Under the pieces are notes generated by a model. The model made no database searches and was not told the origin of the DNA. It saw only the letters and a program-made list of their open reading frames with translations. A stretch of DNA of 64,000 nt, from NCBI GenBank assembly GCA_045807285.1, contig JBJMHR010000021.1, positions 90,612-154,611 of the forward strand, written 5' to 3'. The DNA comes from Actinomycetes bacterium. GTDB lineage: Bacteria; Actinomycetota; Actinomycetes; JAWWOW01. Of the stretch, positions 14,313 through 46,246 are shown piece after piece (within the stretch, counting starts at the first letter, position 1; every line of letters begins with the position of its first letter). The translations under genes and the position numbers were made by a program.

Positions 14313-14996
14313 ATGCACGTTGTGAATGGAAATCCCACGAAGACGCTGAGCACACCGACCGAAGCAACAGGCCGGGGCGGTACTCGACGCACCCGAGTTG
14401 CCGTGGTCAGCCGTCAGGTTCTCGTGAGCGGCATGCTGCGCCCAGCGCTGGAACAACATGACGGCATTGACGTCGTGCTCGACATTGAAGACCCGTTCGA
14501 CGGCTTTCCCTTGCTGGAAGCAGCAAACCCGGACGTCGTGCTCCTGTGGACCGGGTCGGGCCACGTGCAGACGGTGATCCGCGCGTTGGCCGAGCGACTG
14601 GAAAACGTGAAAGTGATCGTGCTCAGCGGATCGACAACGAACGAGTTGGTCGCCCAGGCGTTCGACGCGGGCGCCAGCGGCTGCATATCGCTTCGGCTGC
14701 CGCTCTCCGCCGTGGTCGAGGCCATCGCCGCCGGCGGCCGGCCGCGGTCACGCCCAAGCACCGCGGTGCCCACACCTCGGCGTACCAGAGAACCGGACCG
14801 AAGCCAGTACCTGACCAACCGTGAACGCGAAGTGCTCAGCCGCATCGCTGATGGGGAATCGACCCGCGGCATTGCCTCCGACTTCGGTGTATCACTCGCC
14901 ACCGTGCGCACGCACACGCAAAACATTCTCATGAAGCTAGGCGTTCACTCGAAAGTCGAGGCGGCCGCGTACGCGGTGCGTAACAACCTGAGTTGA
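14313..14996 (+). CDS. LuxR/NarL-family DNA-binding protein with atypical (pseudo-)receiver domain
   Basis: The C-terminal HTH LTNREREVLSRIADGESTRGIASDFGVSLATVRTHTQNILMKL is LuxR type. The N-terminal region has an REC-like fold but lacks the acidic pocket: VVSRQ replaces the DD pair, and W sits at the phospho-acceptor position (PDVVLLWTGSG). Confidence 0.8.
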   Translation: MHVVNGNPTKTLSTPTEATGRGGTRRTRVAVVSRQVLVSGMLRPALEQHDGIDVVLDIEDPFDGFPLLEAANPDVVLLWTGSGHVQTVIRALAERLENVKVIVLSGSTTNELVAQAFDAGASGCISLRLPLSAVVEAIAAGGRPRSRPSTAVPTPRRTREPDRSQYLTNREREVLSRIADGESTRGIASDFGVSLATVRTHTQNILMKLGVHSKVEAAAYAVRNNLS

Positions 14997-15769
14997 GGCA
15001 TATGTTGGCCGATGCCGAGAAACGGCGTCGCGGGAGCTCCGAGCTCCCTGGCCCGATCCTGCTCGCGCACGAGCTGCGCTCGCACCTCGCCGCGATCATG
15101 CTTGCCTCCTCACATCTGCGCCACCTGACCGCGAGCGCTGCGGACGAAGACGTCACGCGCGCATTGACGACGATCGACAACGCGGTAGGACGCGCGACGG
15201 AGCTCACGACCTGGGTGACGGATTCGGTGGCGGATCTCCTCGAGCCGGTATCCGATGGACAGTCCGCGCTTCCTGGCGTGCCCCGTAACTCTCACGTCGA
15301 CCTTGTCAAGACCGTCACGGACGTCGTTTCGGATCTTCGGCGGATCATTCCCCAGCAGGACGTCCGCGTCGCCGTGTCAGATCACGTGGCCGCGTTGGGC
15401 GACGAGGTCCGCATCCGCGCAATTCTGACGATCGTGATCCTGAACACCGCGCGCCGTTCCACCAACGGCACTGCGATCGATGTCACCGTGTACCGGGAGA
15501 AAGCAACCGCGCAGGTGGTCATTGCGTCGGCGTCCTGGCGACCCGGTCAGGCCGAGATCGACGCACTGTTGCTGCCGTTCAGCGCCATGGAGTCGACGAT
15601 CTCCCTCGACCTCGGGTCCCCGCCGAAACGAGTGGCGACCGGATCGAGCGCAAGTACCGGCTCGGTTCGCGCGGCAAGCATCGATGGTCATGTCGGCGTC
15701 ATCGTGCGCATGCCACTGGGGCGTCTCGCAGTGCCGGATGTGCCCCGGCCCAGCAGCCCGGCGTTATGA
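14993..15769 (+). CDS. Histidine-kinase-like protein without transmembrane sensor (HisKA H-box, degenerate ATPase)
   Basis: H-box LLAHELRSHLAAIM followed by an N-box-like ILTIVILNTARRS. No hydrophobic segments. The start overlaps the upstream stop (TTG at 14993, or ATG at 15002, in the same frame). Confidence 0.6.
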   Translation: MRHMLADAEKRRRGSSELPGPILLAHELRSHLAAIMLASSHLRHLTASAADEDVTRALTTIDNAVGRATELTTWVTDSVADLLEPVSDGQSALPGVPRNSHVDLVKTVTDVVSDLRRIIPQQDVRVAVSDHVAALGDEVRIRAILTIVILNTARRSTNGTAIDVTVYREKATAQVVIASASWRPGQAEIDALLLPFSAMESTISLDLGSPPKRVATGSSASTGSVRAASIDGHVGVIVRMPLGRLAVPDVPRPSSPAL

Positions 15770-15866
15770 CCCCCCTCGTCTCGTTCATCTGACGGATGCT
15801 GCCGCCACGACTGCGGCCGTAGCCTCGGCGAAGAGCCAACCCGCCCATTGCAAGTGAGGAGTTGGG

Positions 15867-16121
15867 ATGGATCTCTCAGCGAGCGACGACGTCACTGACC
15901 TCAGCGTCAACTCTGGTGAGCGGCGGCGATACAACCGCCGTCGGCCCGAGTCACAACCATCTCCGCCGTACTTCGCCGTGTTCGAGCGTATGGCTGAGTC
16001 GTTGGAAGCGATCGTCAGCTTGCTGGACATCGGCATCAGCGAGGCGAGAGAGCGTCAAGCGGAGCAGCTGCCAAGGGTCGAGCGCCCGAACCTGCCAAGT
16101 CAATCCGGACCCGGGCGATAA
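15867..16121 (+). CDS. Small hypothetical protein (84 aa), acidic Ser/Asp-rich N-terminus
   Basis: ATG with a near-perfect SD (GAGGAG, 7 nt upstream). It sits directly upstream of the first sulfotransferase gene. Confidence 0.4.
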   Translation: MDLSASDDVTDLSVNSGERRRYNRRRPESQPSPPYFAVFERMAESLEAIVSLLDIGISEARERQAEQLPRVERPNLPSQSGPGR

Positions 16122-16193
16122 CCGCCCGCTTGAACGTCCGTAACCGGGCATTCGGCGCTCTGCGCTAGGAGACGCTCATCCGGGGAGGACCTC

Positions 16194-17111
16194 GTGCTGC
16201 CCAACTTGCTCGTCATCGGTGCAGCGAAGGCCGGCACGACAAGCTTGTGGGCGTATCTGGACGCGCACCCGGACGTGTTCATGGCGCCGGACAAGGAACT
16301 GCACTTCTTCGACCTCGACAGCAACTGGAGTCGCGGCGTCGATTGGTACGCCGGTCACTTCGACGGCAGCGACGGCTACGCGATCGTTGGCGAAGCCACC
16401 CCGGCCTACGCCCGGTACCCCCACCGGCCGAATGCAGCGGAACGTGCCGCAGCCGTGGTACCGGATGCGCGGCTCATCTATCTCGTCCGCGACCCGGTGG
16501 AGCGTGCGCGTTCCCACGTCGTACACGAGATGCGTCACGGCCGCGAGCGGCTCGACCTCGCCGCTGCGTTGTCGGCGAACCCGATGTATCTCGACACCAG
16601 TCGCTATGCCATGCAGCTACGGCAATGGCTGGCTCACTACCGGCGCGAAGCCGTGCTCGTGGTCGAGAGCGAGAGATTGCGTTCTGACCCGGAGACCACG
16701 CTGCGCAGCATCTACCGCTTCCTGTGTGTCGAGGAGCTCGTGCTGCCGGACACGATCGTCGTGAACGAGTCGGCGCAGGCGCTTCGGAGCAGCCCGCGGT
16801 CCCAGCGACTACGCACCAGGAGCGGTGTCCGCACCCTGGCTGCGGTCACCCCTCGCACCTTGCGAGCGGGCCTGAAGGATCGCATCAGGAAGCGCGAACA
16901 CGCACGCGCCCTCGGCGCCGCGATATCACCAGAGCTGCGCGCACAGCTGCTCGAACAGCTTCGACCGGATATCGAAGCACTGGCCGCATTACTGCCGCCG
17001 ACGTTCACCGGCTGGGGCTTGCTCGGCGAACAAAGGACGGCAACAACCGGCGCATTTGTATCAGGGGGAGCCGTTCGAGGCTCCTCGTTAAGCAGCGAGG
17101 AGGCGAGCTGA
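16194..17111 (+). CDS. Sulfotransferase family protein (PAPS-dependent, Sulfotransfer_3-like)
   Basis: 5'-phosphosulfate-binding loop LLVIGAAKAGTTSL. KELHFFD...NWSRGVDWY block. 3'-phosphate-binding motif LIYLVRDPVERARS. Confidence 0.8.
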   Translation: MLPNLLVIGAAKAGTTSLWAYLDAHPDVFMAPDKELHFFDLDSNWSRGVDWYAGHFDGSDGYAIVGEATPAYARYPHRPNAAERAAAVVPDARLIYLVRDPVERARSHVVHEMRHGRERLDLAAALSANPMYLDTSRYAMQLRQWLAHYRREAVLVVESERLRSDPETTLRSIYRFLCVEELVLPDTIVVNESAQALRSSPRSQRLRTRSGVRTLAAVTPRTLRAGLKDRIRKREHARALGAAISPELRAQLLEQLRPDIEALAALLPPTFTGWGLLGEQRTATTGAFVSGGAVRGSSLSSEEAS

Positions 17112-18076
17112 TGAGCGCTACACGGATCAAGAGCCGTCGGGCGGCGGCCGTCTGCCGAGCCGTGGCACCGCTCAGCGTGGCTGCGACCGTTTTCGCCATG
17201 GCAGCACCAGCGCATGCCACCTCAGCTGCACATAGCGACGGGTTCGACCCTGGCCTCCCGGAGCCGGTTGCCGTCGCGACGAGTGGCGACAGCCCCGGAA
17301 CCGGATCCGCCTCGGACCCGGGGAACGGGCTGTCGTCCACCGCCGCTCCGGCGGCGACGCCGACGCCTGGCAGCGGTCGCTGGGCGCATCGACAGCAGGA
17401 GCAGAGTCCGGGGCAACAAACCGTGTCGCACCCCGCGCCGGCTGGCCACGTGCCTGCACCCGCGCCGGCCGCCACACCATCGCCGCAGCCGTGCCCGCCT
17501 CCGCCACCGCAGCACCACGACAACGGTGACCACGGCTTCTTCACGGTCAAGATCACAAATCAGCCCAGCCACCACTTCCTCGTGACGCTGACGTTCCAGT
17601 GCTATGACAAGAACGAGACGCAACACGCAAAGGTGGGCTTCACCGGTGTCAGCCCCACGGGCGACGGCGTACCGGTCAAGATCCTGAGCGGTACGACGAC
17701 CTTCAGCTTCGTCGGTCACCGGTCGACGGCCATTGTCGACGCGGTCCAGGCCTATGTGCTCGATCCCACGGTGCTTGGTCCTTCGGTTGCCAACCAGTGG
17801 CATGTCCGCATCAACGTGCCGATCACGCCGGACGAAAGCGCATCACGTGCTGCTCTCGTCGTACTCGGCACCGGACCCGAGCCGACGCCTACCGTGCTCC
17901 CGTTCCACCGCATCCTCGGGGAGCAGCAGGTCCCACCGCCCAGCGGCAGCAGCCTTCCCTCTACCGGCTTGTCGTCAGTGCCTGCGTACGGCATCGGCGC
18001 CGTGGCCATCTCGACGGGCTTGTTCTTCCTGGTCGTCGGCGCCCGGCCCACCCGCAAGTACAAGCACCGGAGGTAG
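17111..18076 (+). CDS. LPXTG-type cell-wall-anchored surface protein with Pro/Ser/Thr-rich linker
   Basis: The ATG overlaps the stop of the upstream gene (TGATG), and AGGAGG lies upstream. Sec signal peptide ...AMAAPAHA/TS. A ~110-aa P/S/T/G-rich low-complexity region. A beta-rich domain. C-terminal LPSTG + hydrophobic helix + RPTRKYKHRR tail. Confidence 0.7.
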   Translation: MSATRIKSRRAAAVCRAVAPLSVAATVFAMAAPAHATSAAHSDGFDPGLPEPVAVATSGDSPGTGSASDPGNGLSSTAAPAATPTPGSGRWAHRQQEQSPGQQTVSHPAPAGHVPAPAPAATPSPQPCPPPPPQHHDNGDHGFFTVKITNQPSHHFLVTLTFQCYDKNETQHAKVGFTGVSPTGDGVPVKILSGTTTFSFVGHRSTAIVDAVQAYVLDPTVLGPSVANQWHVRINVPITPDESASRAALVVLGTGPEPTPTVLPFHRILGEQQVPPPSGSSLPSTGLSSVPAYGIGAVAISTGLFFLVVGARPTRKYKHRR

Positions 18077-18082
18077 CCCGGG

Positions 18083-18928
18083 ATGACCCCGGGCCGCCTG
18101 CCCACCTTCTACGTGGTCGGGGCCATGAAGAGCGGGACGAGCAGCCTGCACCGGGCGATCGCCGCGCATCCGGACGTGTTCATGTCCACGCCCAAAGAGC
18201 TGCATTACTTCGTCGAAGATCGCAACTGGCAACGTGGCGTGCAGTGGTACGCCGAGCAGTTCGCGCCTGCAGACGGGGCCCTCGCTATTGGCGAAGCATC
18301 GGTGACCTACACGCAGATGCCCTACCGCCCAGGCGTGCCCGAACGGATGGCCGCGCTCACCCCGGAGGCGCGCATCATCTATCTCGTTCGACACCCCGTC
18401 GAACGGATGCTGTCGCATTACCGACACAACCTCGCGTGTGGCCGGGAGAGCCGCGAGCCGGACGCGGCGTTCGAGCGACGCGGCAACTACCTTGCCTTCA
18501 GCCGGTATGGCACGCAGCTCCGCTATTACCAGGACCGGTTTCCACCCGAGCAACTGCTCGTCCTGCCGGCGGAGCGCTTCTTTACCGATCCGGTCCGCGT
18601 GGTGCGTCGAATCTGGACATTTTTGGGCCTCCCGCCGAGCGACGTGGACGTGCCATCGGTTCTCATCAACGCGACGAAAGACCGCCCCGCCCCAGTCGCA
18701 GCGGCTCGGCGATTACGGCACTCCAAAGGTGTCGCCGGCGCCTGGAATGTCTTACCGAAAACTGTGCGCGCCCGTGTGAAGAAGGCTGTTCCGCGCAGCG
18801 CAATGGGCACCCAGCAACTCACGCTGAGTGTCGCCGAGCGACAGCGCATCCAGGATCTCCTCCGCCCCGAAGTGGCGATGATTGCGCCGTACGTCGACGG
18901 GCCGTTCGACCGCTGGGAACTGGTGTAG
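18083..18928 (+). CDS. Sulfotransferase family protein (paralog 2)
   Basis: FYVVGAMKSGTSSL P-loop. KELHYFVEDRNWQRGVQWY. IIYLVRHPVERMLSHY. Confidence 0.8.
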   Translation: MTPGRLPTFYVVGAMKSGTSSLHRAIAAHPDVFMSTPKELHYFVEDRNWQRGVQWYAEQFAPADGALAIGEASVTYTQMPYRPGVPERMAALTPEARIIYLVRHPVERMLSHYRHNLACGRESREPDAAFERRGNYLAFSRYGTQLRYYQDRFPPEQLLVLPAERFFTDPVRVVRRIWTFLGLPPSDVDVPSVLINATKDRPAPVAAARRLRHSKGVAGAWNVLPKTVRARVKKAVPRSAMGTQQLTLSVAERQRIQDLLRPEVAMIAPYVDGPFDRWELV

Positions 18929-19010
18929 CAAGCCGCGTTACGGGTTAGACTCACACCGACGACGAGGCCATGTCCGGTCCCTGCATCCTCGGCAATTTCC
19001 CGCCTGAAGG

Positions 19011-19457
19011 ATGACCGCCATGAGACCTGGCTCACCAGATTCACCATGCTTACGCGATGGCAACCTATTGCTGACCATCGGCCTCCCGGCTCTTCTCGTG
19101 TCGGTTCCCACCGCACGAGGGTTTGCCGCCCACGCGTGCGAAGAGTTCGGCGTGAGCACTGACTCGACGGAACGCGTCGAGCTCGTTGTATCCGAACTGT
19201 CGGCGAACGCTGTCAAGCATGCGGGTGGCGCCTTTCACCTCGCGCTGATCAAGACGTCCGCCGGAGTGCTCGTGGAGGTCGAAGACCCGCTCACCTGTGC
19301 TCCCCCGGTCGCCAGCCGTCCGGATGCAGATGCCGAGACCGGTCGAGGGCTGCAGGTTGTCGAGCAGCTATCCGACGACTGGGGCTGCGAGGCGCTGCCG
19401 GACGGCAAGCGCATGTGGGCACAGGTGCGGGATCAACCGCTCGTGACGACGACCTGA
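19011..19457 (+). CDS. Anti-sigma regulatory factor-like Ser/Thr kinase (RsbW-like HATPase_c)
   Basis: ELVVSELSANAVKHAGG (N-box) and GRGLQVVEQLSDDWG (G-box), about 148 aa. Confidence 0.65.
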   Translation: MTAMRPGSPDSPCLRDGNLLLTIGLPALLVSVPTARGFAAHACEEFGVSTDSTERVELVVSELSANAVKHAGGAFHLALIKTSAGVLVEVEDPLTCAPPVASRPDADAETGRGLQVVEQLSDDWGCEALPDGKRMWAQVRDQPLVTTT

Positions 19458-22243
19458 TCCATCTTCCCGGTGTACTGATCGCCGCCGTCGTCCGCACCGG
19501 ACGGGTCGAACTTCGCGGAAATCGACATCGGTGACTTGTTGGCAATGGCCCCGATGGAGGTGTTCTTGGCCTTGACCGAGCCACCGTCCACCTGAACGCT
19601 CACCGACGAAGTGCTAAACGTGCAGACGATCGTGTGCCAACTGCCCTTGGAGAGACTGTTCGCGCTCAACAGGTCGCCGGGACCGGCCTTCCCGTTGGTG
19701 TAGCAGCGCGCGTGGCCGTCTTCCATGATCTCGATCTTCCAGTCCTGGTCGTCGCTGCCCAGGCCTTTGCGGAGCAGGTCGAAGTCACCGACGGCAGCGG
19801 AGGGCCACGCGTCGAACCTCAGGTGCAGGCTGACGGTGAACTTCTTGGTTCCCGGGTTGAGGCTCGAGGAGTGCGGAACGAGCACTCGTGACATCGACCC
19901 GTCGACCTTCGGAAACCCATATGCAATCGCGGCCGAGTGGTCGGCCTGACCGATGGCGACGTTGCGCAGCGTGCCGTCGTTCCCGTAGCCGCTCGAGTCA
20001 TGCATCGTCCCGTCTGCGCCGTCCGCCATGGACCAGTTGGCCACTGTGACGGCACCCGGGCTGCCCACGACCGTGCCGGTGGGCTGCGACATCGCGGACG
20101 TCGAGCTCTGCCCGTACTTGTCCGTCACAGTGACACTGACGGAGATCGTGGTGGCGTCGTCGTACGTTCGCACGAGATAACTCGGGGCCGTGCTCCCGGA
20201 CTCTTCCGGTGCGCATGTGTTGGCATCGGTGCATTGCTGCCACAGATACTGGAACGTCAAGTCGCCAGGCTGGTATGTGTAGCCGTTGTCACTCGGCGCC
20301 CAGCCTCCGGGCGTCGCCGACAGCGTGTCCCCAACCTCAGCAGTTCCCTGTATCGCCGGCAAAGCTGTGTTCACCGGTCCGGTCCCAACGACGACTCCGC
20401 TGGGCGCGGTGTACGCCGTCACCGTGTTGACCGTGTTCGACCTCGTGACGGCGACGACGACGACGCTGTCGCGGTCGGCGTCCACCAACGTGTACTGGGC
20501 CGGTGTTCCGGAGTTCGCGAACACGCCGGTACAGGTGGAGACGTCGGGCGGTACGACGCCTTGCGGGCAGCGCAGCCAGGTGTACGCCGGATCACTGACG
20601 TTCGTCCCGGACCAGGTGCCGGGCGAGACCGTCAACGTCGACTGCACCGCCGTGGCACCGCTGACCGACGGGTTGACGACCACGGCAACAGGTGCGGGCG
20701 CCACCGGCCCTTGCGACGGTGCCGGCGCCGACCCGGTCGAGCTGGCGTCATTGTGACCGGTGACGACGACACGCACGTAGTCGCCGACATCACCGGGACC
20801 GAGGGTGTAGGTGTCGAGCGTCGCGCCCGTGAGATCCGTCCAAGCGGCGTTGTCCGGCGAGGTCTGCCACTGGTAGGTGAACGTCACAGTCGGCGTACCG
20901 CTCCAGGTCCCCGGAGTGGAGGTCAATGTCGCCCCGTCGACCAGCGCGCCGCTCATCGACGGCACTGCGGTGTTGACGGGAGCCGCTGCGCGGGCGACGT
21001 TCGTGCTCGCAGAGGGCGTCGACGCGCTGCCGTCAGCGTTCGTCGAGGTCTCGAGTACCCGGATCGTGTGTCCGACGTCCCCCGACACGAGCGTGTAGCT
21101 CGAGCCGGTTGCCCCGGCGATCGACGTACAAGCAGCGCCGGTGCTATCGCATTGCTGCCAGTTGTGCAGCAACGGCCCCTGGTTGGTCCAGGTACCGACG
21201 GTGACGTGCAGGACGGTGCCGTCAAAGGGCGACGGTTTGTCGATCGTCGGGGGCGCGTTGTTGACCGGCGGGTTAGGGCCGGTGACGACGACGGCACTCA
21301 AGGCGCTGTTCGCCGCCCCGGCGGGGTTCGTCCCGTTCGAGGCGGTGACCGAGAGAACGAGCGTGTCCCCGATGTCGGCGGCCGCAGGGGTGTAGGACGC
21401 CTTCGTCGCGCCGGAGATCGGCTGGCAGTTCGCCCCGACCGAGTCACAACCGTTCCATTGGTAGGCGTAGGTGAACGGAGGCGTGCCGTTCCAGGACCCG
21501 GGCGTCGATGACAACGACTGGCCTGATGTCGGTGTGCCAACGGTAGTGGGGAGCGAGTTGTTCGTCGGCGGCGCGGCTGCGATCAATGCGGTCGACGCCG
21601 ACGTTGCGTTCGAGCTGCCGGCCGTGTTGGTGCCGGTGACCCGAAGCTGGACCGTCTTACCCACATCTGCGTGTGCGAGCTGGTAGGTCGACGCCTTGGC
21701 ACCGCTGATCGAGGAACAGGTCCCGTTGAGGCAGCGCTGCCACACATACGTGAACGTGATCGGGGTCTGCCCGGTCCACGTCCCGTTCGTCGAGGACAGC
21801 AACGCGCCGTCAGTCGGCGTACCGGACACCGTCGGGGCAGCCGTGTTGGCCGGCGCCGCGCCGGCGGTCACAGCGGTGCTCCGGGCGGAGAACGCGGTCT
21901 TGCTGCCCGCCGAGTTCGTCGCGATCACGCGAGACCGCAGCTGCTTGCCTTTGTCCGCGGCGACCACCACATAGGTCGTCGCCGCGGAACCCGAGATGTT
22001 GCTGCACGACCCACCGACAACGCAGCGCTGCCACAGGTAGGTGAACGTCGGCGCGGGACTGCCGGACCACGTGCCGGCTGTCGTCGCCATCGCCTGGCCG
22101 ACCGTCGGCTGGCCGCTCAACACAGGCGCCGTCGTCAACTTCGGCGCTGTCGCGGCATGTGCCTGCCCGGCGGGGATCGCAATGGCGACGGCAATGACGG
22201 CAGGCGAGAGAACGCGTGCCCACTTTCGGCTCGCGTCAGCCAT
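19433..22243 (-). CDS. Secreted protein with seven ~88-aa Ig-like repeats and C-terminal LamG (concanavalin-A-like) domain
   Basis: Signal peptide MADASRKWARVLSPAVIAVAIAIPAGQAHA. Seven repeats with a conserved T.GxWxG.P..TFTY.WQRC...C..I.GA motif. The C-terminal ~200 aa has the Laminin_G_3 pattern (SGYGNDGTL...FTVSLHLRFDAW). Confidence 0.7.
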   Translation of the reverse strand: MADASRKWARVLSPAVIAVAIAIPAGQAHAATAPKLTTAPVLSGQPTVGQAMATTAGTWSGSPAPTFTYLWQRCVVGGSCSNISGSAATTYVVVAADKGKQLRSRVIATNSAGSKTAFSARSTAVTAGAAPANTAAPTVSGTPTDGALLSSTNGTWTGQTPITFTYVWQRCLNGTCSSISGAKASTYQLAHADVGKTVQLRVTGTNTAGSSNATSASTALIAAAPPTNNSLPTTVGTPTSGQSLSSTPGSWNGTPPFTYAYQWNGCDSVGANCQPISGATKASYTPAAADIGDTLVLSVTASNGTNPAGAANSALSAVVVTGPNPPVNNAPPTIDKPSPFDGTVLHVTVGTWTNQGPLLHNWQQCDSTGAACTSIAGATGSSYTLVSGDVGHTIRVLETSTNADGSASTPSASTNVARAAAPVNTAVPSMSGALVDGATLTSTPGTWSGTPTVTFTYQWQTSPDNAAWTDLTGATLDTYTLGPGDVGDYVRVVVTGHNDASSTGSAPAPSQGPVAPAPVAVVVNPSVSGATAVQSTLTVSPGTWSGTNVSDPAYTWLRCPQGVVPPDVSTCTGVFANSGTPAQYTLVDADRDSVVVVAVTRSNTVNTVTAYTAPSGVVVGTGPVNTALPAIQGTAEVGDTLSATPGGWAPSDNGYTYQPGDLTFQYLWQQCTDANTCAPEESGSTAPSYLVRTYDDATTISVSVTVTDKYGQSSTSAMSQPTGTVVGSPGAVTVANWSMADGADGTMHDSSGYGNDGTLRNVAIGQADHSAAIAYGFPKVDGSMSRVLVPHSSSLNPGTKKFTVSLHLRFDAWPSAAVGDFDLLRKGLGSDDQDWKIEIMEDGHARCYTNGKAGPGDLLSANSLSKGSWHTIVCTFSTSSVSVQVDGGSVKAKNTSIGAIANKSPMSISAKFDPSGADDGGDQYTGKMDQVVVTSG

Positions 22244-26265: not shown

Positions 26266-26280
26266 GTCGGTTCCCCCGGC

Positions 26281-32321: not shown

Positions 32322-32340
32322 CGGGTGACGAGGAGGTGAC

Positions 32341-35724: not shown

Positions 35725-36578
35725 TCGCCACACGTGCGGAAACGCCGCGGATCTCCGTCGTCATGACGGTCTACAACGGCGAGCGTTACATTTCCGACGC
35801 CATCGAGAGCATCCAGCAACAGAGTCTGCGCGACTTCGAGCTCATCGTGGTGAACGACGGCTCGACCGACCAAACCACGGGGATCCTCGCTGCTCTCGAC
35901 GACCCGCGCGTGCACGTCATCCAGCGCCCGCACGTGGGGCGGGTGCCGGCGCTGAACGAGGCACTGTCGCGGTGTCGCGCGCCGTACGTCGCGAACCTGG
36001 ACGCCGATGACGTGGCCCTACCGGGTCGGCTCGAATGGACCACGGAGTTCCTCGACGCACACCCCGACACAGTCGCGATCGGTTCGGGTTGGGAGCCCTA
36101 CGTGCAGTCGCCCAGCCGGGCCCCGCGACGGCTGCCGCGCAGTGACCGCGCGATCCGGTGGAGCTTCTTGTTGCGCAACCCGATGTTCAACAGCTCGGTC
36201 ACATATCGCACCGACGCACTACGCGCGATCGGTGGATTCTCGATGGCGTACGCCGACCGCCTGCACGACGCCGATGCGGTGTTGCGCATCGCAAGCCACG
36301 GCCGGCTGCGCAACCTCGATCAGGCACTGTCGGCGCGCCGGCTGCATGAGCTCCAGCACTTCGCCCGAGTCGACGCCGGTCGCCGGGCCGCGCTGCACGC
36401 TCAGATGCGGTGGCGGGCGGCAAGCCTGCTCGGCTTTCCGCCGTACCTCCGACCGCTGGCCTACACCGTCGCGACCGTGGCAGCGACCCGGTCGCTATTC
36501 GTCATCGGCGTGCTCGGTCGCAACGGCCGGGTCGACCGACGGCGGGCGGTCCGGCCGGCACCTGCCGAGGCGCGGTGA
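35721..36578 (+). CDS. Glycosyltransferase family 2 (GT-A)
   Basis: ATGA overlap start. ISVVMTVYNGERYISDAIESI...ELIVVNDGSTD and DADD motifs. Confidence 0.85.
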   Translation: MIATRAETPRISVVMTVYNGERYISDAIESIQQQSLRDFELIVVNDGSTDQTTGILAALDDPRVHVIQRPHVGRVPALNEALSRCRAPYVANLDADDVALPGRLEWTTEFLDAHPDTVAIGSGWEPYVQSPSRAPRRLPRSDRAIRWSFLLRNPMFNSSVTYRTDALRAIGGFSMAYADRLHDADAVLRIASHGRLRNLDQALSARRLHELQHFARVDAGRRAALHAQMRWRAASLLGFPPYLRPLAYTVATVAATRSLFVIGVLGRNGRVDRRRAVRPAPAEAR

Positions 36579-40118: not shown

Positions 40119-41028
40119 CCGGAGCCGTGACCGGTCGGAACCGGTCGTCACGTTCTGCGTCGTCGGCGCGGGCAAGGCCGGGACGACGTGGCTGTTCGAG
40201 GTGCTGAGAGCGCATCCGGACGTCGTCATGGCGCGGGCCAAGGAAACGATGTACTTCGACGCGCAGTACGGCCGCGGCGTCGAGTGGTACCACTCGATGT
40301 TCCCTGCTGATGCGGTCGCGCCGACCGGTGAGGTCTCGAACACCTACCTCACTGCACCGTCCGCGCCCGCGCGAATAGCGGCGTACAACCCGCAAATGCA
40401 GCTCATCGCCTTGCTGCGTGACCCAGTGGACCGGGCGATGTCCAACTACCTCTTCTTCCTGCGCAACGGGCAGGTGCGCGGTTCGTTCGAGGAGGCGCTG
40501 GAGGCTCGGCCGGACCTGCTCGACCACGGCTTTTACGGACGCCACCTGCAGAACTACCTCGGGCACTTCCCAATGTCAGCCGTGCATCTCGAAGCGTTCG
40601 ACGACTTGGCGGCCGACCCGCACTCCGTTGCCGCGCGCGTGCTCACTCATCTGGGCTTGCCGGACACAGAGATACCGGCCGTCGCGGGCAGCCAGGTGCT
40701 TGCCGCGAGCGCACCGCGCAGCCGCGCAGTCGCGGCAGTGATGAAGAGCGGCGCCGTCATGGTCCGGCAGCTCGGTGCACCTGGCTTTGTCACCCGCGTC
40801 AAACGCGGGTCGCTGCCGCGGTATCTGTACCGGCCGCTCTCCGCCCGTCCCACGATGTCGCCGGAGACATCGGCCCGCTTGCGCGAGCTCTACACCGATG
40901 ACGTCGAGCTGCTCACGACATTGACGGGCCGCCACTGGGCGGACCTGTGGTGGGAACGCGAGCACGGAAAAGCCCTCGGGCGGAGCGACGGTCTCCCGTC
41001 CGCCCCGCCCGAGGGTGTCAGGCTCTAG
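40108..41028 (+). CDS. Sulfotransferase family protein (paralog 4)
   Basis: FCVVGAGKAGTTWL. KETMYFD...GRGVEWY. LIALLRDPVDRAMSNY. Confidence 0.8.
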   Translation: MPSNRSRDRSEPVVTFCVVGAGKAGTTWLFEVLRAHPDVVMARAKETMYFDAQYGRGVEWYHSMFPADAVAPTGEVSNTYLTAPSAPARIAAYNPQMQLIALLRDPVDRAMSNYLFFLRNGQVRGSFEEALEARPDLLDHGFYGRHLQNYLGHFPMSAVHLEAFDDLAADPHSVAARVLTHLGLPDTEIPAVAGSQVLAASAPRSRAVAAVMKSGAVMVRQLGAPGFVTRVKRGSLPRYLYRPLSARPTMSPETSARLRELYTDDVELLTTLTGRHWADLWWEREHGKALGRSDGLPSAPPEGVRL

Positions 41029-42857
41029 TAGCCGTGCCCTGAAAGCCAGGCCGACTTCGCACTGTTCCAGACGTTGATGTCGTTGGTCATCGTGACGCCC
41101 GCCGGCAGCTTGCCCGGGTAAGGCTTGCTGCTGGTCCACACGAACTTCACATTGGTGAACGTGCCGGTCGGCCAGCTGTCGGCGCACTCATGGTTGCCGT
41201 AGTCCTGCCGGATGACGACGTTCTTGAGGTTGACCGGGCCGTGGAAACCGTCCATCTTCCACATCGGGCCGTTGGCCTTGCCGTTGATGACCCACTGCGT
41301 GCAGCTGCCGCCGGAGGTGCTTCCCGGCTCGGGCTGCACGTAGAACAGCGAGTCCTGGATGTCGACCTTGAACGCCTTGGTGCTGCCGTTGGAGGACCGC
41401 CACGAGATACCGGTGTGGCAACCGTCGAACAGGCTGTCCCGCACGATCAGATCTCCGTGCGTGATGTCGGAGATGCAGTCGTCGCGCGTGTACGTCTCGT
41501 ACACACCGTCGTACGTCACCGGCGCAGAGTTCCAGGTGCGAATACCGTCGACGCCAGCGTTGTCGATCCGGACGTCCTTCAGGTACGCCGACCCGTTGAG
41601 CGTGACGCCGGCACCGTTGCAGCACTGCTTCATCTGCCACCACTTGATCGTGCGGTCGATGTTGCTGTTCACGGTGACACCGACCAGGCAGTTGCTGGAT
41701 CCGTTGAGCGTGACCGGGGTCAGGCTGCTCGTGGTCTCCGTGTACGTCGCACCACGACCGTCGTACGTCGTGCTGCTTGCGCCATCGCTGAACGTCGAGC
41801 CGCTGTGCATGGTCACGGTGTGCGTCGGGCAGGTGGTCGGCACTGTGCCACCGGAGGTGGGCGGCGACTGACCGGGCACCGGGCTACCACTCGGCGACGG
41901 CTGCGGACTCGGGCCACCACTTGGCGGCGGAGTCGGCTGACCGGTCGGGCTCGTCGACGGCTGCGGGGACGGATTGGAACCACCGGAGTGCGCCGCAGTC
42001 CAGCGAGCCTTCGCGTTGTCCCACACGCTGACGTCGCGGGTCATCGTGACACCGGCCGGCAGCTTGCCCGGGTACGGCTTCGAGTTGTTCCAGACCAGCC
42101 AGACGTTGTTGTACGTGCCGCTGGGCCACGTGTCGACGCACTGGTAGTTGGCAAGGTCCATGCGGATCACGACGTTGGTGACGGTGACGCCCTTCTGGAC
42201 GCCGTCCATCTTCCACATCGTGCCGTTGTCCTTGCCACCTTGGACCCACGACTTGCAGTTGCCGCCGCCGCCGTGGTCAGTCATCGGCTTGATGTAGAAC
42301 AGGCTGTTCTGCACGTTGACGGCGAACGGGGTGTGGTTGTTGTTGTTCGTCGACCGCCACGAGATGCCCGTGTGGCAACCATCGAACAAGCTCCCGCGCA
42401 CATCAAGGGCCCCGTGCGTGATGTCGGAGATGCAGTCATCACGAGTGTCCGTCGAATGGGCACCGATGATGGTCGTCGCGGCATGGTTCCAGGTACGGAT
42501 GCCGTCCACGGCGATGTTCTGGGTCCGCGCGTTCACCAAGGTGACGTTTCCGGAATCGACCGTTATGGCAGCGCCGTTGCAACACTGCTTCAGCTGCCAC
42601 CAGGTCTGGCTCGCCGGGAAGTTACCGGTGACGCTGACGCCGGCATAACACTGGTTGTTGCCGGAGACCCGGATGGGGGTCAGGTTGCTTTTGCTCTGCT
42701 GGTAGGTGCCGCCGTTATGCGCACTCGTTCCAGCTGGGCAGGCTGCGCTCGGTGACGACGTCGTCGCGTTCGAGTGCGCCAACAACACCGCGGCCGGGCC
42801 AACGATTGGCGCCGTCAGCGCCAGCGCGCTTACCGCCTTGACCAACCCGATTCGCAT
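41025..42857 (-). CDS. Secreted protein with two tandem homologous Cys-rich ~240-aa domains separated by a Pro/Ser/Thr linker
   Basis: Signal peptide. Domain 1 (aa ~35-285) and domain 2 (aa ~345-610) share WWQ.KQCCNGA...VDGIRTWN...RDDCISDITHG.L.VR.SLFDGCHTGISWRS...GKLPAGVTMT. The linker is PSPQPSTSPTGQPTPPPSGGPSPQPSPSGSPVPGQSPPTSGG. Confidence 0.6.
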   Translation of the reverse strand: MRIGLVKAVSALALTAPIVGPAAVLLAHSNATTSSPSAACPAGTSAHNGGTYQQSKSNLTPIRVSGNNQCYAGVSVTGNFPASQTWWQLKQCCNGAAITVDSGNVTLVNARTQNIAVDGIRTWNHAATTIIGAHSTDTRDDCISDITHGALDVRGSLFDGCHTGISWRSTNNNNHTPFAVNVQNSLFYIKPMTDHGGGGNCKSWVQGGKDNGTMWKMDGVQKGVTVTNVVIRMDLANYQCVDTWPSGTYNNVWLVWNNSKPYPGKLPAGVTMTRDVSVWDNAKARWTAAHSGGSNPSPQPSTSPTGQPTPPPSGGPSPQPSPSGSPVPGQSPPTSGGTVPTTCPTHTVTMHSGSTFSDGASSTTYDGRGATYTETTSSLTPVTLNGSSNCLVGVTVNSNIDRTIKWWQMKQCCNGAGVTLNGSAYLKDVRIDNAGVDGIRTWNSAPVTYDGVYETYTRDDCISDITHGDLIVRDSLFDGCHTGISWRSSNGSTKAFKVDIQDSLFYVQPEPGSTSGGSCTQWVINGKANGPMWKMDGFHGPVNLKNVVIRQDYGNHECADSWPTGTFTNVKFVWTSSKPYPGKLPAGVTMTNDINVWNSAKSAWLSGHGY

Positions 42858-43151: not shown

Positions 43152-43511
43152 ATGTCCGTTCCACGTCGGGGTTACCCGGTCCACGGCGACCAGCCGCGGA
43201 TCGTCGACGTACCAGCCCCTCGCGACCGTCAGCTCAACCACCGGCGGTGGACGGAACTGGTCAACCAGCTGTTACCCCCGTTGTGGAGTGCTCTCAGCAC
43301 TGAGCGTGCTCCGGTGGAGATGCGGCACGAGGCCTGCGTGGTCGCTTGGTTGCGGCTCACGCAACAGCCGGAGGTCGTGACTGAGGCAGACACGGCAACG
43401 TGGCTGCTCACGACCGCACGCATCGAGCTGGGCCGGGTGCTTGCTCGCTACGAAATGGTTGCCCGCGAGGTTCTCAGGAACCCGCGCGGAGACAAAGGAG
43501 CCCTGCCGTGA
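43152..43511 (+). CDS. Sigma-70 region-2-like small protein (truncated ECF-sigma-like)
   Basis: RWTELVNQLLPPLWSAL...HEACVVAWLRL resembles sigma regions 2.1-2.2 only. Its stop overlaps the start of the downstream ECF sigma gene (GTGA). The ORF-track start at 43056 is an alternative. Confidence 0.4.
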   Translation: MSVPRRGYPVHGDQPRIVDVPAPRDRQLNHRRWTELVNQLLPPLWSALSTERAPVEMRHEACVVAWLRLTQQPEVVTEADTATWLLTTARIELGRVLARYEMVAREVLRNPRGDKGALP

Positions 43512-44113
43512 CCGTTGTGACCGTCGACGCTGAAGACCTCGTACGACGTGCTGGGACCGGAGACCGGACCGCGTGGACGGGCCTCGTCGACGCCTACGCC
43601 GGGATGATCTTCAGCATCGCCCGCTCGCACCGGCTCAGCGAGGCAGACGCGACGGACGTCAGCCAGACCACGTGGTTGCGCCTGATAGAGCATCTCGACC
43701 GGATCAACGACCCGTCGCGCGTGGGTGCCTGGCTCGCGACGACGGCCCGGCGCGAGAGCCTGCGCGTCATCGGCATCTCCTCACGCCAACTGCCGACCGG
43801 CGAGAGCACCGAGCTCGAGCCACGCATCCGTTCTGACGTCGAGCTCGACGCAGCGTTGCTCGCCAGCGAACGCGACGCTCGGCTGCAGAAGGCGCTCGCG
43901 CAGCTGCCGGCACGCTGCGTCACGATGCTCCTGCTGCTCACGGGCGATGACGCGCTGAGCTACCAGGAGATCTCCGAACGCCTGGGCATGCCGGTCGGAT
44001 CGATCGGCCCGACCAGGGCCCGGTGCCTGCAGAAGCTGCGGGTAATCCTCGACGAGATGGATGCCGAAGACGCCGAACCGGCAGCCCACGTAGGAGTACG
44101 TGTGCAAGCATGA
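43508..44113 (+). CDS. RNA polymerase ECF-type sigma factor
   Basis: Region 2 (WTGLVDAYAGMIFSIARSHRLSEADATDVSQTTWLRLIEH) and region 4 (LPARCVTMLLLLTGDDALSYQEISERLGMPVGSIGPTRARCLQKLR). GTG start at 43508; the ORF track gives 43400. Confidence 0.75.
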   Translation: MTVVTVDAEDLVRRAGTGDRTAWTGLVDAYAGMIFSIARSHRLSEADATDVSQTTWLRLIEHLDRINDPSRVGAWLATTARRESLRVIGISSRQLPTGESTELEPRIRSDVELDAALLASERDARLQKALAQLPARCVTMLLLLTGDDALSYQEISERLGMPVGSIGPTRARCLQKLRVILDEMDAEDAEPAAHVGVRVQA

Positions 44114-44167
44114 GCCCCACCGCTAGGACCGCACCACAGACCAACCACCCAGCAGTGCCCAGTCCAC

Positions 44168-44584
44168 GTGTCGAGGGGTGACCGAACGGTCATGGAACCC
44201 GTGCCGGAGGTCGTGCGCCAAGCGGCGTTGCAGGCTTTCGACTTGCGTGTCCCCGATGCAGAGCTCGCCGAGCTCATCTACGACCCCCTGCTGGACGCCG
44301 ACGGCTCGCAGCTGCACGGGGGCGAACGGGTACTGCACTTCTCGACGGGTCAGGACAGCGTGATGGTTGGCGTCACGCACCTGCAAAGCGGCTTGCGCCT
44401 CACGGTCGCGCTCGTCCCACCCTCGACCGCTCGGGTCGAGCTACGGAACCCGACCGACAGCTGGCATCTCGTCGCCAACGAACTCGGTCGGCTCTGTGTC
44501 GACTCGGTCCCGTCCGGCCCGGTCAGCCTCGTCATCCGCCGCGAGGGCGTCCGACCGATCCAGACCTCGTGGGTGCGCATCTAG
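44168..44584 (+). CDS. Hypothetical protein (138 aa)
   Basis: Protein-like composition downstream of the ECF sigma gene. It overlaps the convergent LuxR gene by 144 nt, so one of the two 3' ends is probably over-extended. Confidence 0.35.
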   Translation: MSRGDRTVMEPVPEVVRQAALQAFDLRVPDAELAELIYDPLLDADGSQLHGGERVLHFSTGQDSVMVGVTHLQSGLRLTVALVPPSTARVELRNPTDSWHLVANELGRLCVDSVPSGPVSLVIRREGVRPIQTSWVRI

Positions 44585-45328
44585 GTCGATGGTCCGGTCC
44601 TCGTCCGAGTAGCCGGGCGAACCGTCGGTGAACAGCCGTCGCCCCTCGGCTGCTGCTTGCAGCTGGCTGTGCACGTCCAGCTTCCCCATGATGTGTTGAA
44701 GGTGCGTGCGCACAGTGTGCTGTGACAGACCGAGCGTGCCGGCGATGTGTCGGCTGCTCCGACCGTTCGACAGCAGCCGCAGGACCTCTTGCTCGCGCGG
44801 TGTCAGCCGGGCCATCTCGAGCGCTTGAGCTGACGCGACCGCCTGGCTCAGATGCAGCTGGGCGAGAACGGGTTGGGCAAGGTGGCTGGGCAGCACGAAT
44901 CCCCCGGCCAAGACCTGGCGGATCGCGGACAGCAACGTCTCCGGCTTGGCGTCCTTACCGCAGAAGCCGTGCGCGCCGAGCTGGAGCGCACGCGCGATCG
45001 TCGCCACGTCCTCGCTGCCACTCAGGATCAGAACTTTGACCGCCAGCCCCATGTGGCTGAGCGCCTCCACAACGGTGAGACCGTCACCACGGACGTCATC
45101 CAGCCCCAGATCGAGGACCAGCAGATCCGCACCCTTCCGGACCAGCCGCAGCGCCTCGTCCGCGTCGTACACCGCCTCGACGCTGCCGACCTCGGGCAGG
45201 TCGATCAGGTAGGGCACGAGCGCGTCCGTGAAGACCCGGTGATCGTCACAGACGACCACTCTCAGGCCAGATGACAGCACGCTTGACTCCGAGCATCGGG
45301 ACGGCGCGAATCGCACCAGGACACGCAC
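44441..45328 (-). CDS. LuxR/NarL-family response regulator (canonical receiver) with ~70-aa C-terminal tail
   Basis: Receiver motifs VVVCDDHRVF, DLLVLDLGLDD and KVLILSGSED. HTH LTPREQEVLRLLSNGRSSRHIAGTLGLSQHTVRTHLQHIMGKL. Confidence 0.7.
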   Translation of the reverse strand: MRVLVRFAPSRCSESSVLSSGLRVVVCDDHRVFTDALVPYLIDLPEVGSVEAVYDADEALRLVRKGADLLVLDLGLDDVRGDGLTVVEALSHMGLAVKVLILSGSEDVATIARALQLGAHGFCGKDAKPETLLSAIRQVLAGGFVLPSHLAQPVLAQLHLSQAVASAQALEMARLTPREQEVLRLLSNGRSSRHIAGTLGLSQHTVRTHLQHIMGKLDVHSQLQAAAEGRRLFTDGSPGYSDEDRTIDLDAHPRGLDRSDALAADDEADRAGRDRVDTEPTEFVGDEMPAVGRVP

Positions 45329-45394
45329 CGTCGCACGTTTCCGGCAGATCGGTGTACTGCATCTGCACTAGATGGGGCCTCGTATTCGCGGTGC

Positions 45395-46246
45395 ATGACG
45401 TATCTGGCCGAGCGGTCACGTTCTCTCCGAGGCGTGCTCCCGACGTTCGCAGTGATCGGCGCCATGAAGGCCGGCACAACGGCTGTTTACCGCGGGCTGA
45501 GCGACCATCCCGACGTTTTCATGTGTACGCCGAAGGAACCGCAGTTCTTCACCACGCGGTGGGAGCGCGGTTTGCATTGGTACGAAGGTCTGTTCGCCGC
45601 CGCGGGCAACGCGCTCGCCCGCGGGGACGCATCTACCAGTTATACGGACTTTCCTCGCAAATCGGATGCGGCTCGGCGGATGGCGCTGATCGTGCCGGAC
45701 ATCCGGCTGGTGTACGTCGTACGCGACCCGGTCGCACGGATGCGGTCGCACTACCGCCACCGGGTGGCCCAGGGGGTGGAGACACGTCCCATCGAGCGCG
45801 CGTTGCTGGACGAGCGTTACCTGCTACGCAGCAGCTACGCCTTGCAGATCGAGCAGTACGCCGCAAAGTTTCCGCGGTCGCAATTACTGGTCCTTGACGC
45901 AGCTGACCTCCTGGCCGGCGGCACGAGTTGGTCGCGCTTGTTCGAGTTCATCGGCGTTGGCGCGCTCGACGCTGCACCGCTTCTGCCGCGCGCAAACGAA
46001 ACGGCCGCGCGGCTAGAGATGCGCCCGGCCGCAAGAGCGCTGCGGCAACGGGCCAAGGGGACGACGCTCTATCGCCTGGCGCCGGCACGCGCGCGCACCG
46101 TTGCGCGCAGGTTCGGCCGCAGGCCGCCTTCCGAGCACGACGATGCGACGATCAGCGCGGATCTATGTGCAGAGATCCGCGCGCGGTTGCACGACGACGT
46201 CGAGCAGTTCGCGGAGATGACCGGAATCCGGTTCAAGGAGACCTGA
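45395..46246 (+). CDS. Sulfotransferase family protein (paralog 5)
   Basis: FAVIGAMKAGTTAV. KEPQFFTTRWERGLHWY. LVYVVRDPVARMRSHY. Confidence 0.8.
   Translation: MTYLAERSRSLRGVLPTFAVIGAMKAGTTAVYRGLSDHPDVFMCTPKEPQFFTTRWERGLHWYEGLFAAAGNALARGDASTSYTDFPRKSDAARRMALIVPDIRLVYVVRDPVARMRSHYRHRVAQGVETRPIERALLDERYLLRSSYALQIEQYAAKFPRSQLLVLDAADLLAGGTSWSRLFEFIGVGALDAAPLLPRANETAARLEMRPAARALRQRAKGTTLYRLAPARARTVARRFGRRPPSEHDDATISADLCAEIRARLHDDVEQFAEMTGIRFKET

Follow-up and report, generated by a model that had tools for sequence, protein, structure and literature searches.

A multi-sulfotransferase locus of an uncultured actinomycete, a candidate ABC-transporter-dependent pathway for a sulfated cell-surface glycan

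As biomaterials, sulfated polysaccharides are prized, and they have a central place in the matrix biology of animals and algae. To our knowledge, glycan sulfation has been chemically proven in few bacteria (cyanobacteria, some marine Proteobacteria, and rhizobia) and in none of the Actinomycetes. Among the closest described systems, Vibrio sp. KMM 8419 has an ABC-type capsule cluster with three sulfotransferases (STs) and cysNDC, and the structure of its sulfated glycan has been solved (PMC11641403). Polysaccharide clusters bearing STs, of both the Wzy and the ABC type, occur in Synechocystis sp. PCC 6803 (the synechan xss cluster) and in other cyanobacteria (PMC8205485). Sulfated polysaccharides of rhizobia have likewise been published (PMC11625862), and in Actinoplanes missouriensis a cluster for a sulfated exopolysaccharide with two STs, wps-1, was predicted in 2026 and is unverified (PMC13390465). 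The locus analyzed here, about 30 kb long and containing five ST genes, lies in a 64-kb stretch of DNA (contig JBJMHR010000021.1, 208,924 bp; hereafter the window) from an NCBI metagenome-assembled genome (MAG) of an uncultured "Actinomycetes bacterium."

The locus consists of three tightly coupled operons whose junctions overlap by 4 to 22 nt, including those between wzt and ST3 and between the third family 4 glycosyltransferase gene (GT4c) and ST4, so that the start/stop overlaps described in the first-pass annotation (an earlier note made from the sequence of this DNA) are real. Gene calls were based on codon-position G+C, and annotation used Pfam and NCBIfam. Operon A (+, 14313-19457) encodes a LuxR regulator, a histidine-kinase-like protein, a small protein, ST1, a protein with an LPXTG anchor, ST2, and an RsbW-like kinase. 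Operon B (-, 30936-19433) encodes Wzm, Wzt, ST3, a protein resembling polysaccharide co-polymerases (PCP-like), an epimerase, a lipoprotein, a 757-aa protein, and an Ig/LamG secreted protein. Operon C (+, 30983-41028) encodes a PqqD-like protein, an HprK-related-kinase-like protein, a GT4, a Wzy_C protein, a phosphoglycosyl transferase (PGT), a family 2 glycosyltransferase (GT2), a second GT4, a lipoprotein, a third GT4, and ST4. Past operon C come a convergent gene for a secreted two-domain protein, an extracytoplasmic function (ECF) sigma factor, and a LuxR regulator, with ST5 beyond the latter. The first-pass inventory of three GT4 enzymes, one GT2, a Wzy_C protein, Wzm/Wzt, and an epimerase agrees with Pfam. 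For comparison we used related metagenomic loci, namely, L001/L166 (a JGI contig of 222 kb), L162, L163, L165, L168 (a 234-kb contig), and L082. The organisms come from samples JGI 3300055049, 3300055098, and 3300036402 and SRR33270663.

This conserved cluster most likely builds, sulfates, and exports a cell-surface glycan. We read it, with a probability of roughly 0.6, as an ABC-transporter-dependent pathway in which the glycan is sulfated in the cytoplasm and then transferred in a ligase-like step by the Wzy_C protein. The PGT would prime polyprenyl phosphate at the cytoplasmic face, and the GT2 and the three GT4 enzymes would extend the chain. ST1 to ST4, the conserved core, with ST5 perhaps as an accessory, would sulfate the lipid-linked glycan at distinct positions, with 3'-phosphoadenosine 5'-phosphosulfate (PAPS) as the donor. 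The finished and probably end-capped chain would be bound by the carbohydrate-binding domain (CBD) of Wzt and exported via Wzm/Wzt, and on the outer side of the membrane the Wzy_C protein would finally take it off its lipid carrier and attach it to an acceptor. This acceptor could be the Ser/Thr/Pro-rich sortase-anchored protein whose gene lies between ST1 and ST2, or else part of the wall or a lipid. The first-pass annotation had likewise proposed a sulfated surface glycan or glycoconjugate, which is still the best reading and is strengthened by a PAPS synthase encoded in a related locus (see below).

Set beside the described systems, the locus shares much with each. Like it, the Vibrio KMM 8419 cluster is ABC-transporter-dependent and has several STs, with sulfation proposed to be cytoplasmic and to precede export (PMC11641403). 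Unlike it, the Vibrio cluster has a Gram-negative host, a KpsMTED exporter rather than Wzm/Wzt with a CBD, and a product chemically proven to be sulfated; it includes cysNDC, which was not found in the window (the related locus L168 has a PAPS synthase), and is without the Wzy_C, PCP-like, and LPXTG components. The synechan xss cluster resembles the locus in its STs, many glycosyltransferases, priming transferase, Wzy-family protein, PCP, and in-cluster two-component regulators but has a Wzx flippase and two STs of different subfamilies, whereas the window has no Wzx, a Wzm/Wzt pair with a CBD, four to five paralogous STs of the heparan sulfate (HS) type, and a Gram-positive host. The wps-1 cluster, compared by description only, likewise comes from an actinomycete and shares STs (one of them HS type), a Wzy_C-like protein, a PCP, and a kinase-like protein; it differs in being Wzx/Wzy-dependent, in having two STs, a methyltransferase, and a GH26 protein, and in being without Wzm/Wzt and the LPXTG triad. 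The O-antigen exporters of Escherichia coli O9a (2r5o), Klebsiella/Raoultella O12 (5hno), and Aquifex aeolicus (8dku/8dky) have a nucleotide-binding domain (NBD) homologous to that of the window Wzt and a CBD of the same fold, and the window differs from them in its Gram-positive host, in having no WbdD-like methyltransferase or Kdo transferase, and in a CBD too diverged for Pfam. The earlier statement that this is not a described system was therefore overstated, given the ST-bearing clusters of cyanobacteria, Vibrio, and rhizobia, the one predicted in Actinoplanes, and Actinomycetota MAGs with four or five STs. Judged from its genes, the system is of a kind already known, and there is good bioinformatic support for the function inferred. 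What is new is the combination of a Gram-positive actinomycete host, a Wzm/Wzt-CBD route together with Wzy_C and PCP-like proteins, four maintained HS-type STs plus one peripheral one, and an ST-LPXTG-ST module.

The case for sulfation begins with the five ST open reading frames (ORFs), ST1 (305 aa; 16194-17111, +), ST2 (281 aa; 18083-18928, +), ST3 (300 aa; 28030-28932, -), ST4 (306 aa; 40108-41028, +), and ST5 (283 aa; 45395-46246, +). All are intact and match Pfam Sulfotransfer_3 (PF13469) and Sulfotransfer_1 (PF00685) above the gathering scores (E values of 6e-20 to 7e-08; 32.7 to 72.8 bits versus cut-offs of 22 and 27), which upholds their first-pass assignment, and the NCBI pipeline already labels each a "sulfotransferase family protein." ST5 gives the weakest matches of the five (Sulfotransfer_3, 34.8 bits; Sulfotransfer_1, 32.7 bits). 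ST2 to ST5 share 33 to 41% identity with ST1. A profile of the five matched the bacterial ST 3rnl over its full length in the PDB (5e-45), followed by HS 3-OST1/3/5 and the N-sulfotransferase domain of NDST1 (1e-27 to 1e-33); ST1 alone matched 3rnl at 6e-30 and HS 3-OST1 at 2e-22, with Stf0, StaL, Teg, and CurM absent or insignificant in the same search. By sequence, the five ORFs are predicted HS-type carbohydrate sulfotransferases that use PAPS. The first-pass comparison to Stf enzymes and NodH was right in taking them for bona fide PAPS-type carbohydrate STs but misplaced their kinship, which is nearest to HS 3-OST/N-sulfotransferases and 3rnl rather than to Stf0, NodH-like, or tyrosine STs. 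With the animal HS 3-OSTs, the NDST domain, and bacterial 3rnl, they share the fold family, the 5'-phosphosulfate-binding (PSB) loop, the Glu base of the KE(x)HFF motif, and the Arg and Ser of the 3'-phosphate-binding (3'-PB) motif. They differ from the animal enzymes in being soluble cytoplasmic bacterial proteins and in a distinct C-terminal segment of about 90 aa common only to 3rnl-type bacterial proteins.

None of the five has a signal peptide or transmembrane segment, and this places them in the cytoplasm, where PAPS is. Their family and location bear on the idea that they act on a substrate made outside the locus, such as a secondary metabolite, a sulfolipid (as Stf0 does for trehalose sulfolipids), or protein tyrosines (as RaxST and TPST do). 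STs of actinomycetes are known for glycopeptide antibiotics and sulfolipids, and the LPXTG protein sits between two of the STs. Yet the top PDB relatives are HS STs, the ST genes overlap wzt and GT genes, and the Pfam scan found no nonribosomal peptide synthetase, polyketide synthase, or lipid-synthesis genes in the locus; the STs, moreover, are cytoplasmic, unlike the secreted LPXTG protein. Identity as a tyrosine sulfotransferase was rejected, as TPST1 matched ST1 in the PSB loop only (E of 0.25), and identities of the Stf0, StaL, or Teg type were rejected because none was among the significant PDB matches. We regard a substrate foreign to the locus as extremely improbable.

Alignment of the five STs showed the three motifs reported at first pass in every one of them, with small deviations only: the PSB loop of ST3 reads GAMRAGST, with Arg instead of the Lys kept by the other four; the block ending in WY reads QGVPWY in ST3 and RGLHWY in ST5; and ST2 has VRHP. 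ST4 and ST5 are without the His of the KExHFF motif, which aligns to ENEVHFF of 3uan (the 3-OST-1 motif). The loop Arg of ST3 and the missing His of ST4 and ST5, together with the ST5 scores barely above the Pfam thresholds, might indicate that some or all of the paralogues are dead scaffolds or binding proteins and that the glycan is unsulfated or singly sulfated. An alignment of 157 family members argues otherwise. The loop residue is Lys in 144 of the 157 and Arg in the other 13, and the His is present in only 61. By comparison, the catalytic Glu base occurs in 150, the 3'-PB Arg in all 157, and the 3'-PB Ser in 153, and the KE pair and both residues of RxPxxRxxS are invariant in all five window STs, so that the PAPS-binding residues called for by the first-pass claim are kept, with Lys or (in ST3) Arg in the loop. 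Every paralogue also has conserved orthologues. Inactivity thus seems very unlikely.

The paralogues can be told apart by descent as well. ST1 has orthologues at 60 to 65% identity. ST2 and ST4 form their own orthologue groups (62 to 69% identity for ST2, versus about 40% to its paralogues, and 51 to 70% for ST4), with scores of 330 to 400 bits, at 58 to 70% identity, for orthologues against 75 to 200 bits for paralogues. ST3 is translationally coupled to wzt, and its orthologues adjoin Wzt in L166 and L168. ST4 overlaps GT4c by 11 nt and keeps its position in L162 and L163. The closest homologues seen for ST5 are about 50% identical. This pattern suggests that the paralogues diverged long ago and have each been maintained separately, as would be expected if each had its own acceptor position, and these four to five diverged HS-type STs are candidate regiospecific enzymes for chemoenzymatic sulfation. 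ST5 stands apart: it is not kept at the matching position in L162, where the GerE regulator is followed by pth and the gene for ribosomal protein L25, which puts ST5 outside the conserved core. The five-ST island of the first-pass annotation accordingly does have five STs, but one of them is peripheral.

The gene order itself is conserved, as a search of relatives showed. In L001/L166, operons A and B recur together with the beginning of operon C, in matching order and at 45 to 80% identity, and L162 and L163 keep operon C, including ST4 and the convergent secreted protein. L168 has the order Wzm, Wzt (393 aa), ST, PCP-like protein, epimerase, PAPS synthase, 757-aa protein, and Ig/LamG protein. 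Its PAPS synthase (positions 8289-10004 of L168, +) is a fusion of PUA_2, ATP-sulfurylase, and APS-kinase domains (5e-76 and 2e-56) inside the orthologous operon, and in the window its slot is occupied by the lipoprotein gene at 24497-25240. We consider this synthase the strongest available evidence, at the level of sequence, that the operon belongs to a PAPS-consuming sulfation system. Downstream of the fusion, L168 has an NMT1-type ABC importer and an Rrf2 regulator. The locus offers both a clear candidate for the export route (Wzm/Wzt-CBD) and a relative with an embedded PAPS synthase.

A control bears on whether STs and glycan genes could have come together by accident. A metagenome scan with the PGT as the query returned 80 loci, among them one short orthologue (L082), and none of the 80 carries an ST, which indicates that the clustering is not due to chance. 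Scanning one genome per species, we found 287 ST relatives spread over many phyla and kept 80 loci for inspection. Among these kept loci are two from other Actinomycetota MAGs. L004 (MFD02840.bin.1.302, 1-20819) combines five STs with a polysaccharide deacetylase, a UDP-glucose dehydrogenase, a PGT, GT4s, and a PCP-like protein, as well as a Polysacc_synt_2 dehydratase, an NTP_transf_5 protein, and a fused ABC exporter; L003 has four STs. The L004 genes call to mind the N-deacetylase/N-sulfotransferase chemistry of glycosaminoglycans. Multi-ST loci were also seen in two cultured bacteria, Botrimarina colliarenosi Pla108 and Salinisphaera sp. PC39. Multi-ST glycan loci are thus dispersed among uncultured Actinomycetota and across many other phyla, and bacterial glycan sulfation may be much commoner than the literature states. 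At 90% identity clustering, the window proteins are singletons, and an exact contig look-up with ST2 gave no record.

Export is the second pillar of the proposed pathway. Operon B begins with Wzm (30082-30936, -), an ABC-2 permease (Pfam ABC2_membrane, 1e-08) with a 75% identical orthologue in L166, followed by the ABC ATPase Wzt (28911-30092, -). The Wzt NBD (ABC_tran) matches that of A. aeolicus Wzt (5e-55) as well as TagH, galactan Wzt (NCBIfam), and Mycobacterium tuberculosis RfbE. Its C-terminal ~150 residues (aa ~245-393) were undetected by sequence (Pfam Wzt_C, E of 0.19; the PDB sequence search was empty). Among 1.8 billion representatives searched, 141 proved to be homologues of this region (of 42 of these, 5 match Pfam Wzt_C), and the AlphaFold (AF2) model built on them reached a predicted local distance difference test score (pLDDT) of 90.8. 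The top 14 PDB fold matches of the model are all Wzt CBDs, from Klebsiella/Raoultella O12 and A. aeolicus (E of 3e-7 to 2e-5), and E. coli O9a follows at rank 18; TM-scores to these systems are 0.55 to 0.68. The C terminus is confirmed, by predicted fold rather than by sequence, as the Wzt carbohydrate-binding domain that had been claimed for it. Such a domain binds the capped nonreducing end and is a mark of the export of complete, end-capped, lipid-linked chains. No Wzx/MOP flippase (Polysacc_synt/MOP) was found in the scanned ORFs of the window or in L162, L166, and L168. Because of the Wzt CBD and this absence of Wzx, an ABC-transporter-dependent route is the better reading, one in which the Wzy_C protein would work after export as a ligase-type transferase. 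The first-pass description of a "wzy/wzm-wzt hybrid" is better replaced by this arrangement.

The other enzymes of lipid-linked assembly fit more than one route. The PGT (34816-35724, +), the initiating enzyme, is a polyprenyl-phosphate phosphoglycosyl transferase (Pfam Bac_transf, 2e-59; NCBIfam EPS_sugtrans, 1e-83). It had been called WbaP-type, which holds for the catalytic domain and not for the architecture, as the protein is a short form with one transmembrane segment. The Wzy_C-domain protein (33522-34829, +; Pfam Wzy_C, 2e-12) is polytopic, with at least seven transmembrane segments, and is conserved in L162, L166, L168, and L082. The Wzy_C domain is common to O-antigen ligases, O-oligosaccharyltransferases, and polymerases, which sequence cannot tell apart. 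The PCP/Wzc-like protein (26281-28008, -) has two transmembrane segments and a cytoplasmic P-loop domain (AAA_31, 8e-06; EpsG, 1e-19), which agrees with its earlier description as a Wzc-like co-polymerase, but it scores below the curated cut-offs (AAA_31, 26.4 versus 27 bits; NCBIfam EpsG, 70.6 versus 313.8) and has no C-terminal Tyr cluster, there being no Tyr in the last ~60 residues.

These proteins could instead belong to a Wzy-dependent pathway for a sulfated exopolysaccharide or capsule, like that of synechan xss or Actinoplanes wps-1, in which lipid-linked repeats would be sulfated, flipped, and polymerized by the Wzy_C protein under Wzc-like control, with Wzm/Wzt either doing the flipping or serving another polymer. 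A Wzy_C protein, a PCP-2a-like P-loop protein, a PGT, and four glycosyltransferases (which fits a five-sugar repeat) are all in the locus, and ST-bearing clusters of this type have been published (PMC8205485, PMC13390465). But the flippase is missing from the window and from three orthologous loci; the wzm-wzt-ST3-PCP genes show translational coupling and are conserved along with the GT operon, with Wzm adjoining PGT and GT2 in L082; the Wzt CBD is a hallmark of the export of completed, capped chains; and the PCP-like protein departs from its family in the ways just given. We therefore consider a Wzy-dependent route rather unlikely.

For the preferred ABC-transporter-dependent route, the next question is what the Wzt CBD would read. 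If there is a cap, phosphate and sulfate are the candidates. Two genes may have a part in chain termination: that for the 757-aa protein, in view of its kinase-like domain and long helix, and ST3, which overlaps wzt. The 757-aa protein (22236-24509, -) is a conserved cytoplasmic multidomain protein with a nucleotidyltransferase-like motif, an NDK-like domain (HSSDN), a protein-kinase-like domain, and a long C-terminal helix, and it is a member of a widespread uncharacterized family of ~750-aa proteins. Homologues are encoded in Wzm/Wzt-CBD loci that have no STs, such as that of the cultured Actinotalea caeni, where the gene adjoins one for a methyltransferase/APH protein, and in one case the homologue carries a fused Wzx-type domain. 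This argues that the family belongs to glycan export and termination and not to sulfation as such. The possibility of a cryptic PAPS synthase was rejected on the grounds of these NDK-like and protein-kinase-like folds and ST-free contexts. That the protein is a chain terminator or modifier is a guess.

The acceptor may be a protein. The sortase-type wall-anchored protein encoded at 17108-18076 (+) has a signal peptide, a Ser/Thr/Pro-rich half that is variable, a conserved C-terminal domain, LPSTG at residue 283, a transmembrane segment (291-314), and the basic tail RKYKHRR. Its gene overlaps ST1 by 4 nt and lies 6 nt from ST2, and the resulting ST-LPXTG-ST triad is kept in three loci, with LPSTG in the window and LPTTG and LPQTG in L166 and L165. 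In L168, an LPSTG protein that is unrelated to the window protein apart from the anchor lies beside an ST. The S/T/P-rich protein may thus be a glycan acceptor, and the recurrent adjacency of ST and LPXTG genes, a circumstantial point, is compatible with a glycoprotein product and with the Wzy_C protein as an O-oligosaccharyltransferase; the recurring link to wall-anchored proteins hints in the same direction. In Geobacillus stearothermophilus, the slg cluster, with WsaP, Wzm/Wzt, and WsaB, places its chain on the S-layer protein. That cluster and the window have in common a Gram-positive host, an initiating PGT, an ABC exporter, and a Wzy_C-family transferase (a putative one in the window); slg has no STs and has an S-layer protein, not an LPXTG protein, as the acceptor.

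A sulfated glycoprotein system would be a sub-case of the proposed pathway in which en bloc transfer by the Wzy_C protein would place the glycan on Ser/Thr residues of the sortase-anchored protein, and perhaps of the Ig-LamG protein, to give a proteoglycan-like wall protein. The conserved triad with its 4- and 6-nt junctions, the different LPSTG protein adjoining an ST in L168, and a possible parallel between the PGT, ABC exporter, and Wzy_C set and the Geobacillus S-layer glycosylation cluster speak for it. Set against these are that the argument is one of gene adjacency, that the LPXTG proteins of L168 and the window have nothing but the anchor in common, that Wzy_C proteins are not typable from sequence, and that the 64-kb window yielded no sortase. 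We hold this sub-case to be tentative and, on balance, unlikely. A bolder form, a bacterial analogue of proteoglycans with a heavily sulfated glycan completed in the cytoplasm and exported through Wzm/Wzt, a Wzt CBD that would read an anionic cap (sulfate or phosphate), and en bloc transfer by Wzy_C onto a mucin-like region of a wall protein, is speculative and decidedly unlikely; we know of no description of either a sulfated O-glycoprotein in a Gram-positive bacterium or sulfate as a Wzt-recognized terminator.

Several points weigh against the ABC-transporter-dependent pathway for a sulfated glycan. PCP/Wzc-like and Wzy_C proteins are more characteristic of Wzy-dependent pathways, and NCBIfam and PDB searches with the Wzy_C protein gave no discrimination among ligase, O-oligosaccharyltransferase, and polymerase. 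No chain-terminating methyltransferase or Kdo transferase is recognizable in the locus to go with the Wzt CBD. As the first-pass annotation had stated, the scanned ORFs across the 64-kb window include no cysD, cysN, cysC, or cysQ and no Pfam match to a sortase, and no TLxTC motif occurs in any of the six frames; PAPS would be supplied from elsewhere in this genome, and a cognate sortase may be encoded outside the window. A search for ST4 homologues returned no protein from the 222-kb relative, compared as far as the start of operon C, which suggests an ST complement that varies between relatives. Finally, all of the loci are metagenome assemblies known from genes alone, and it is from these that sulfation itself, the sugars, the cap, the acceptor, and the order of events are inferred.

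The remaining genes of the three operons supply further enzymes, surface proteins, and regulators. In operon B, the product at 25237-26265 (-) is an NAD-dependent nucleotide-sugar epimerase/dehydratase (Pfam Epimerase, 2e-56). Two lipoproteins proposed at first pass are plausible. One, encoded at 24497-25240 (-; start corrected), is a putative lipoprotein with lipobox VTAC and a 38% identical orthologue in L166. The other, in operon C (37759-38895, +; 378 aa), has lipobox LIGC and orthologues at 54 to 66% in L162 and L163. It had no match in Pfam or NCBIfam at relaxed thresholds, and a metagenome scan with it gave 157 pattern matches, none of them real; a faint GH5-like hint comes from the PDB, where an endoglycoceramidase matched at an E of only 0.1. 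The last gene of operon B (19433-22243, -), overlapping the 757-aa gene by 8 nt, encodes a secreted 936-aa protein (Pfam IG_AIR9, SCAB-Ig, and Laminin_G_3) with about seven Ig-like repeats of the AIR9/SCAB-Ig type, followed at the C terminus by a LamG (concanavalin-like lectin) domain; it has orthologues in L166 and L168. It could be a glycan binder or carrier.

The glycosyltransferases of operon C are GT4a (32341-33528, +), GT2 (35721-36578, +; Pfam Glycos_transf_2, 5e-29; start ATG at 35721), GT4b (36575-37762, +; start candidate GTG at 36575), and GT4c (38892-40118, +), the GT4 enzymes being assigned by Pfam. At the head of this operon is a pair conserved in L162, L166, and L168: a small PqqD-like protein (30983-31447, +; start uncertain), identified through a weak PqqD match of its L166 counterpart and weakly matching one in L162, and an HprK-related-kinase-like protein (31440-32321, +) with orthologues at 44 to 69% in the same three loci and an NCBIfam HprK_rel_A match (6e-09) far below the cut-off. 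Pairs of PqqD-like and HprK-related proteins are usually tied to peptide maturation.

Operon A opens with a LuxR-type response regulator (14313-14996, +; Pfam GerE, 2e-18; weak Response_reg, 1e-05) that has a 51% orthologue in L001/L166. Its gene overlaps by 4 nt that of a soluble histidine-kinase-like protein (14993-15769, +) with the H-box HELRSHL and a weak HisKA match (E of 0.005). The small conserved protein upstream of ST1 (15867-16121, +; 84 aa) had no match in Pfam or NCBIfam at relaxed thresholds and is 60 to 61% identical to proteins at the matching position in L001/L166 and L165. The operon closes with an RsbW-like anti-sigma kinase regulator (19011-19457, +; HATPase_c_2, 2e-13), also present in L166.

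On the right flank, the secreted 610-aa protein (41025-42857, -) is convergent with ST4, as it is in L162 and L163, and has a 66% orthologue in L163. It consists of two tandem domains of ~245 aa, 55% identical to each other and joined by a Pro-rich linker, with the conserved Cys-containing motifs DDCISDITHG and DGCHTGISWRS; it had no Pfam or NCBIfam match, even at relaxed thresholds, and no PDB sequence match. The ECF-type sigma factor (43400-44113, +; Pfam Sigma70_r2/r4) has a counterpart in L162, and the LuxR-type response regulator (44441-45328, -; Pfam) marks the right edge of the conserved locus. Convergent with ST5, with a 14-nt overlap, is the gene for a secreted CAP/SCP-domain protein (46233-47090, -) with a C-terminal transmembrane anchor. 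Of the two LPXTG proteins reported at first pass, the one at 17108-18076 stands, but a second was not found, since this CAP-domain protein is without LPXTG.

Base composition gives no break at the locus (G+C of 64 to 70%, as throughout the window), and no tRNA genes were found in the 64 kb; a horizontally acquired island was rejected on these grounds. Directly upstream lies a gene for a Y_phosphatase3 tyrosine phosphatase (12840-13634, -), an imaginable partner of the PCP-like protein; it was rejected as part of the system, as it is not kept next to the locus in L166. Downstream of the locus are a GGDEF/EAL cyclic di-GMP protein and a classical HisKA/OmpR pair (50299-52302, +, and 57143-59110, -).

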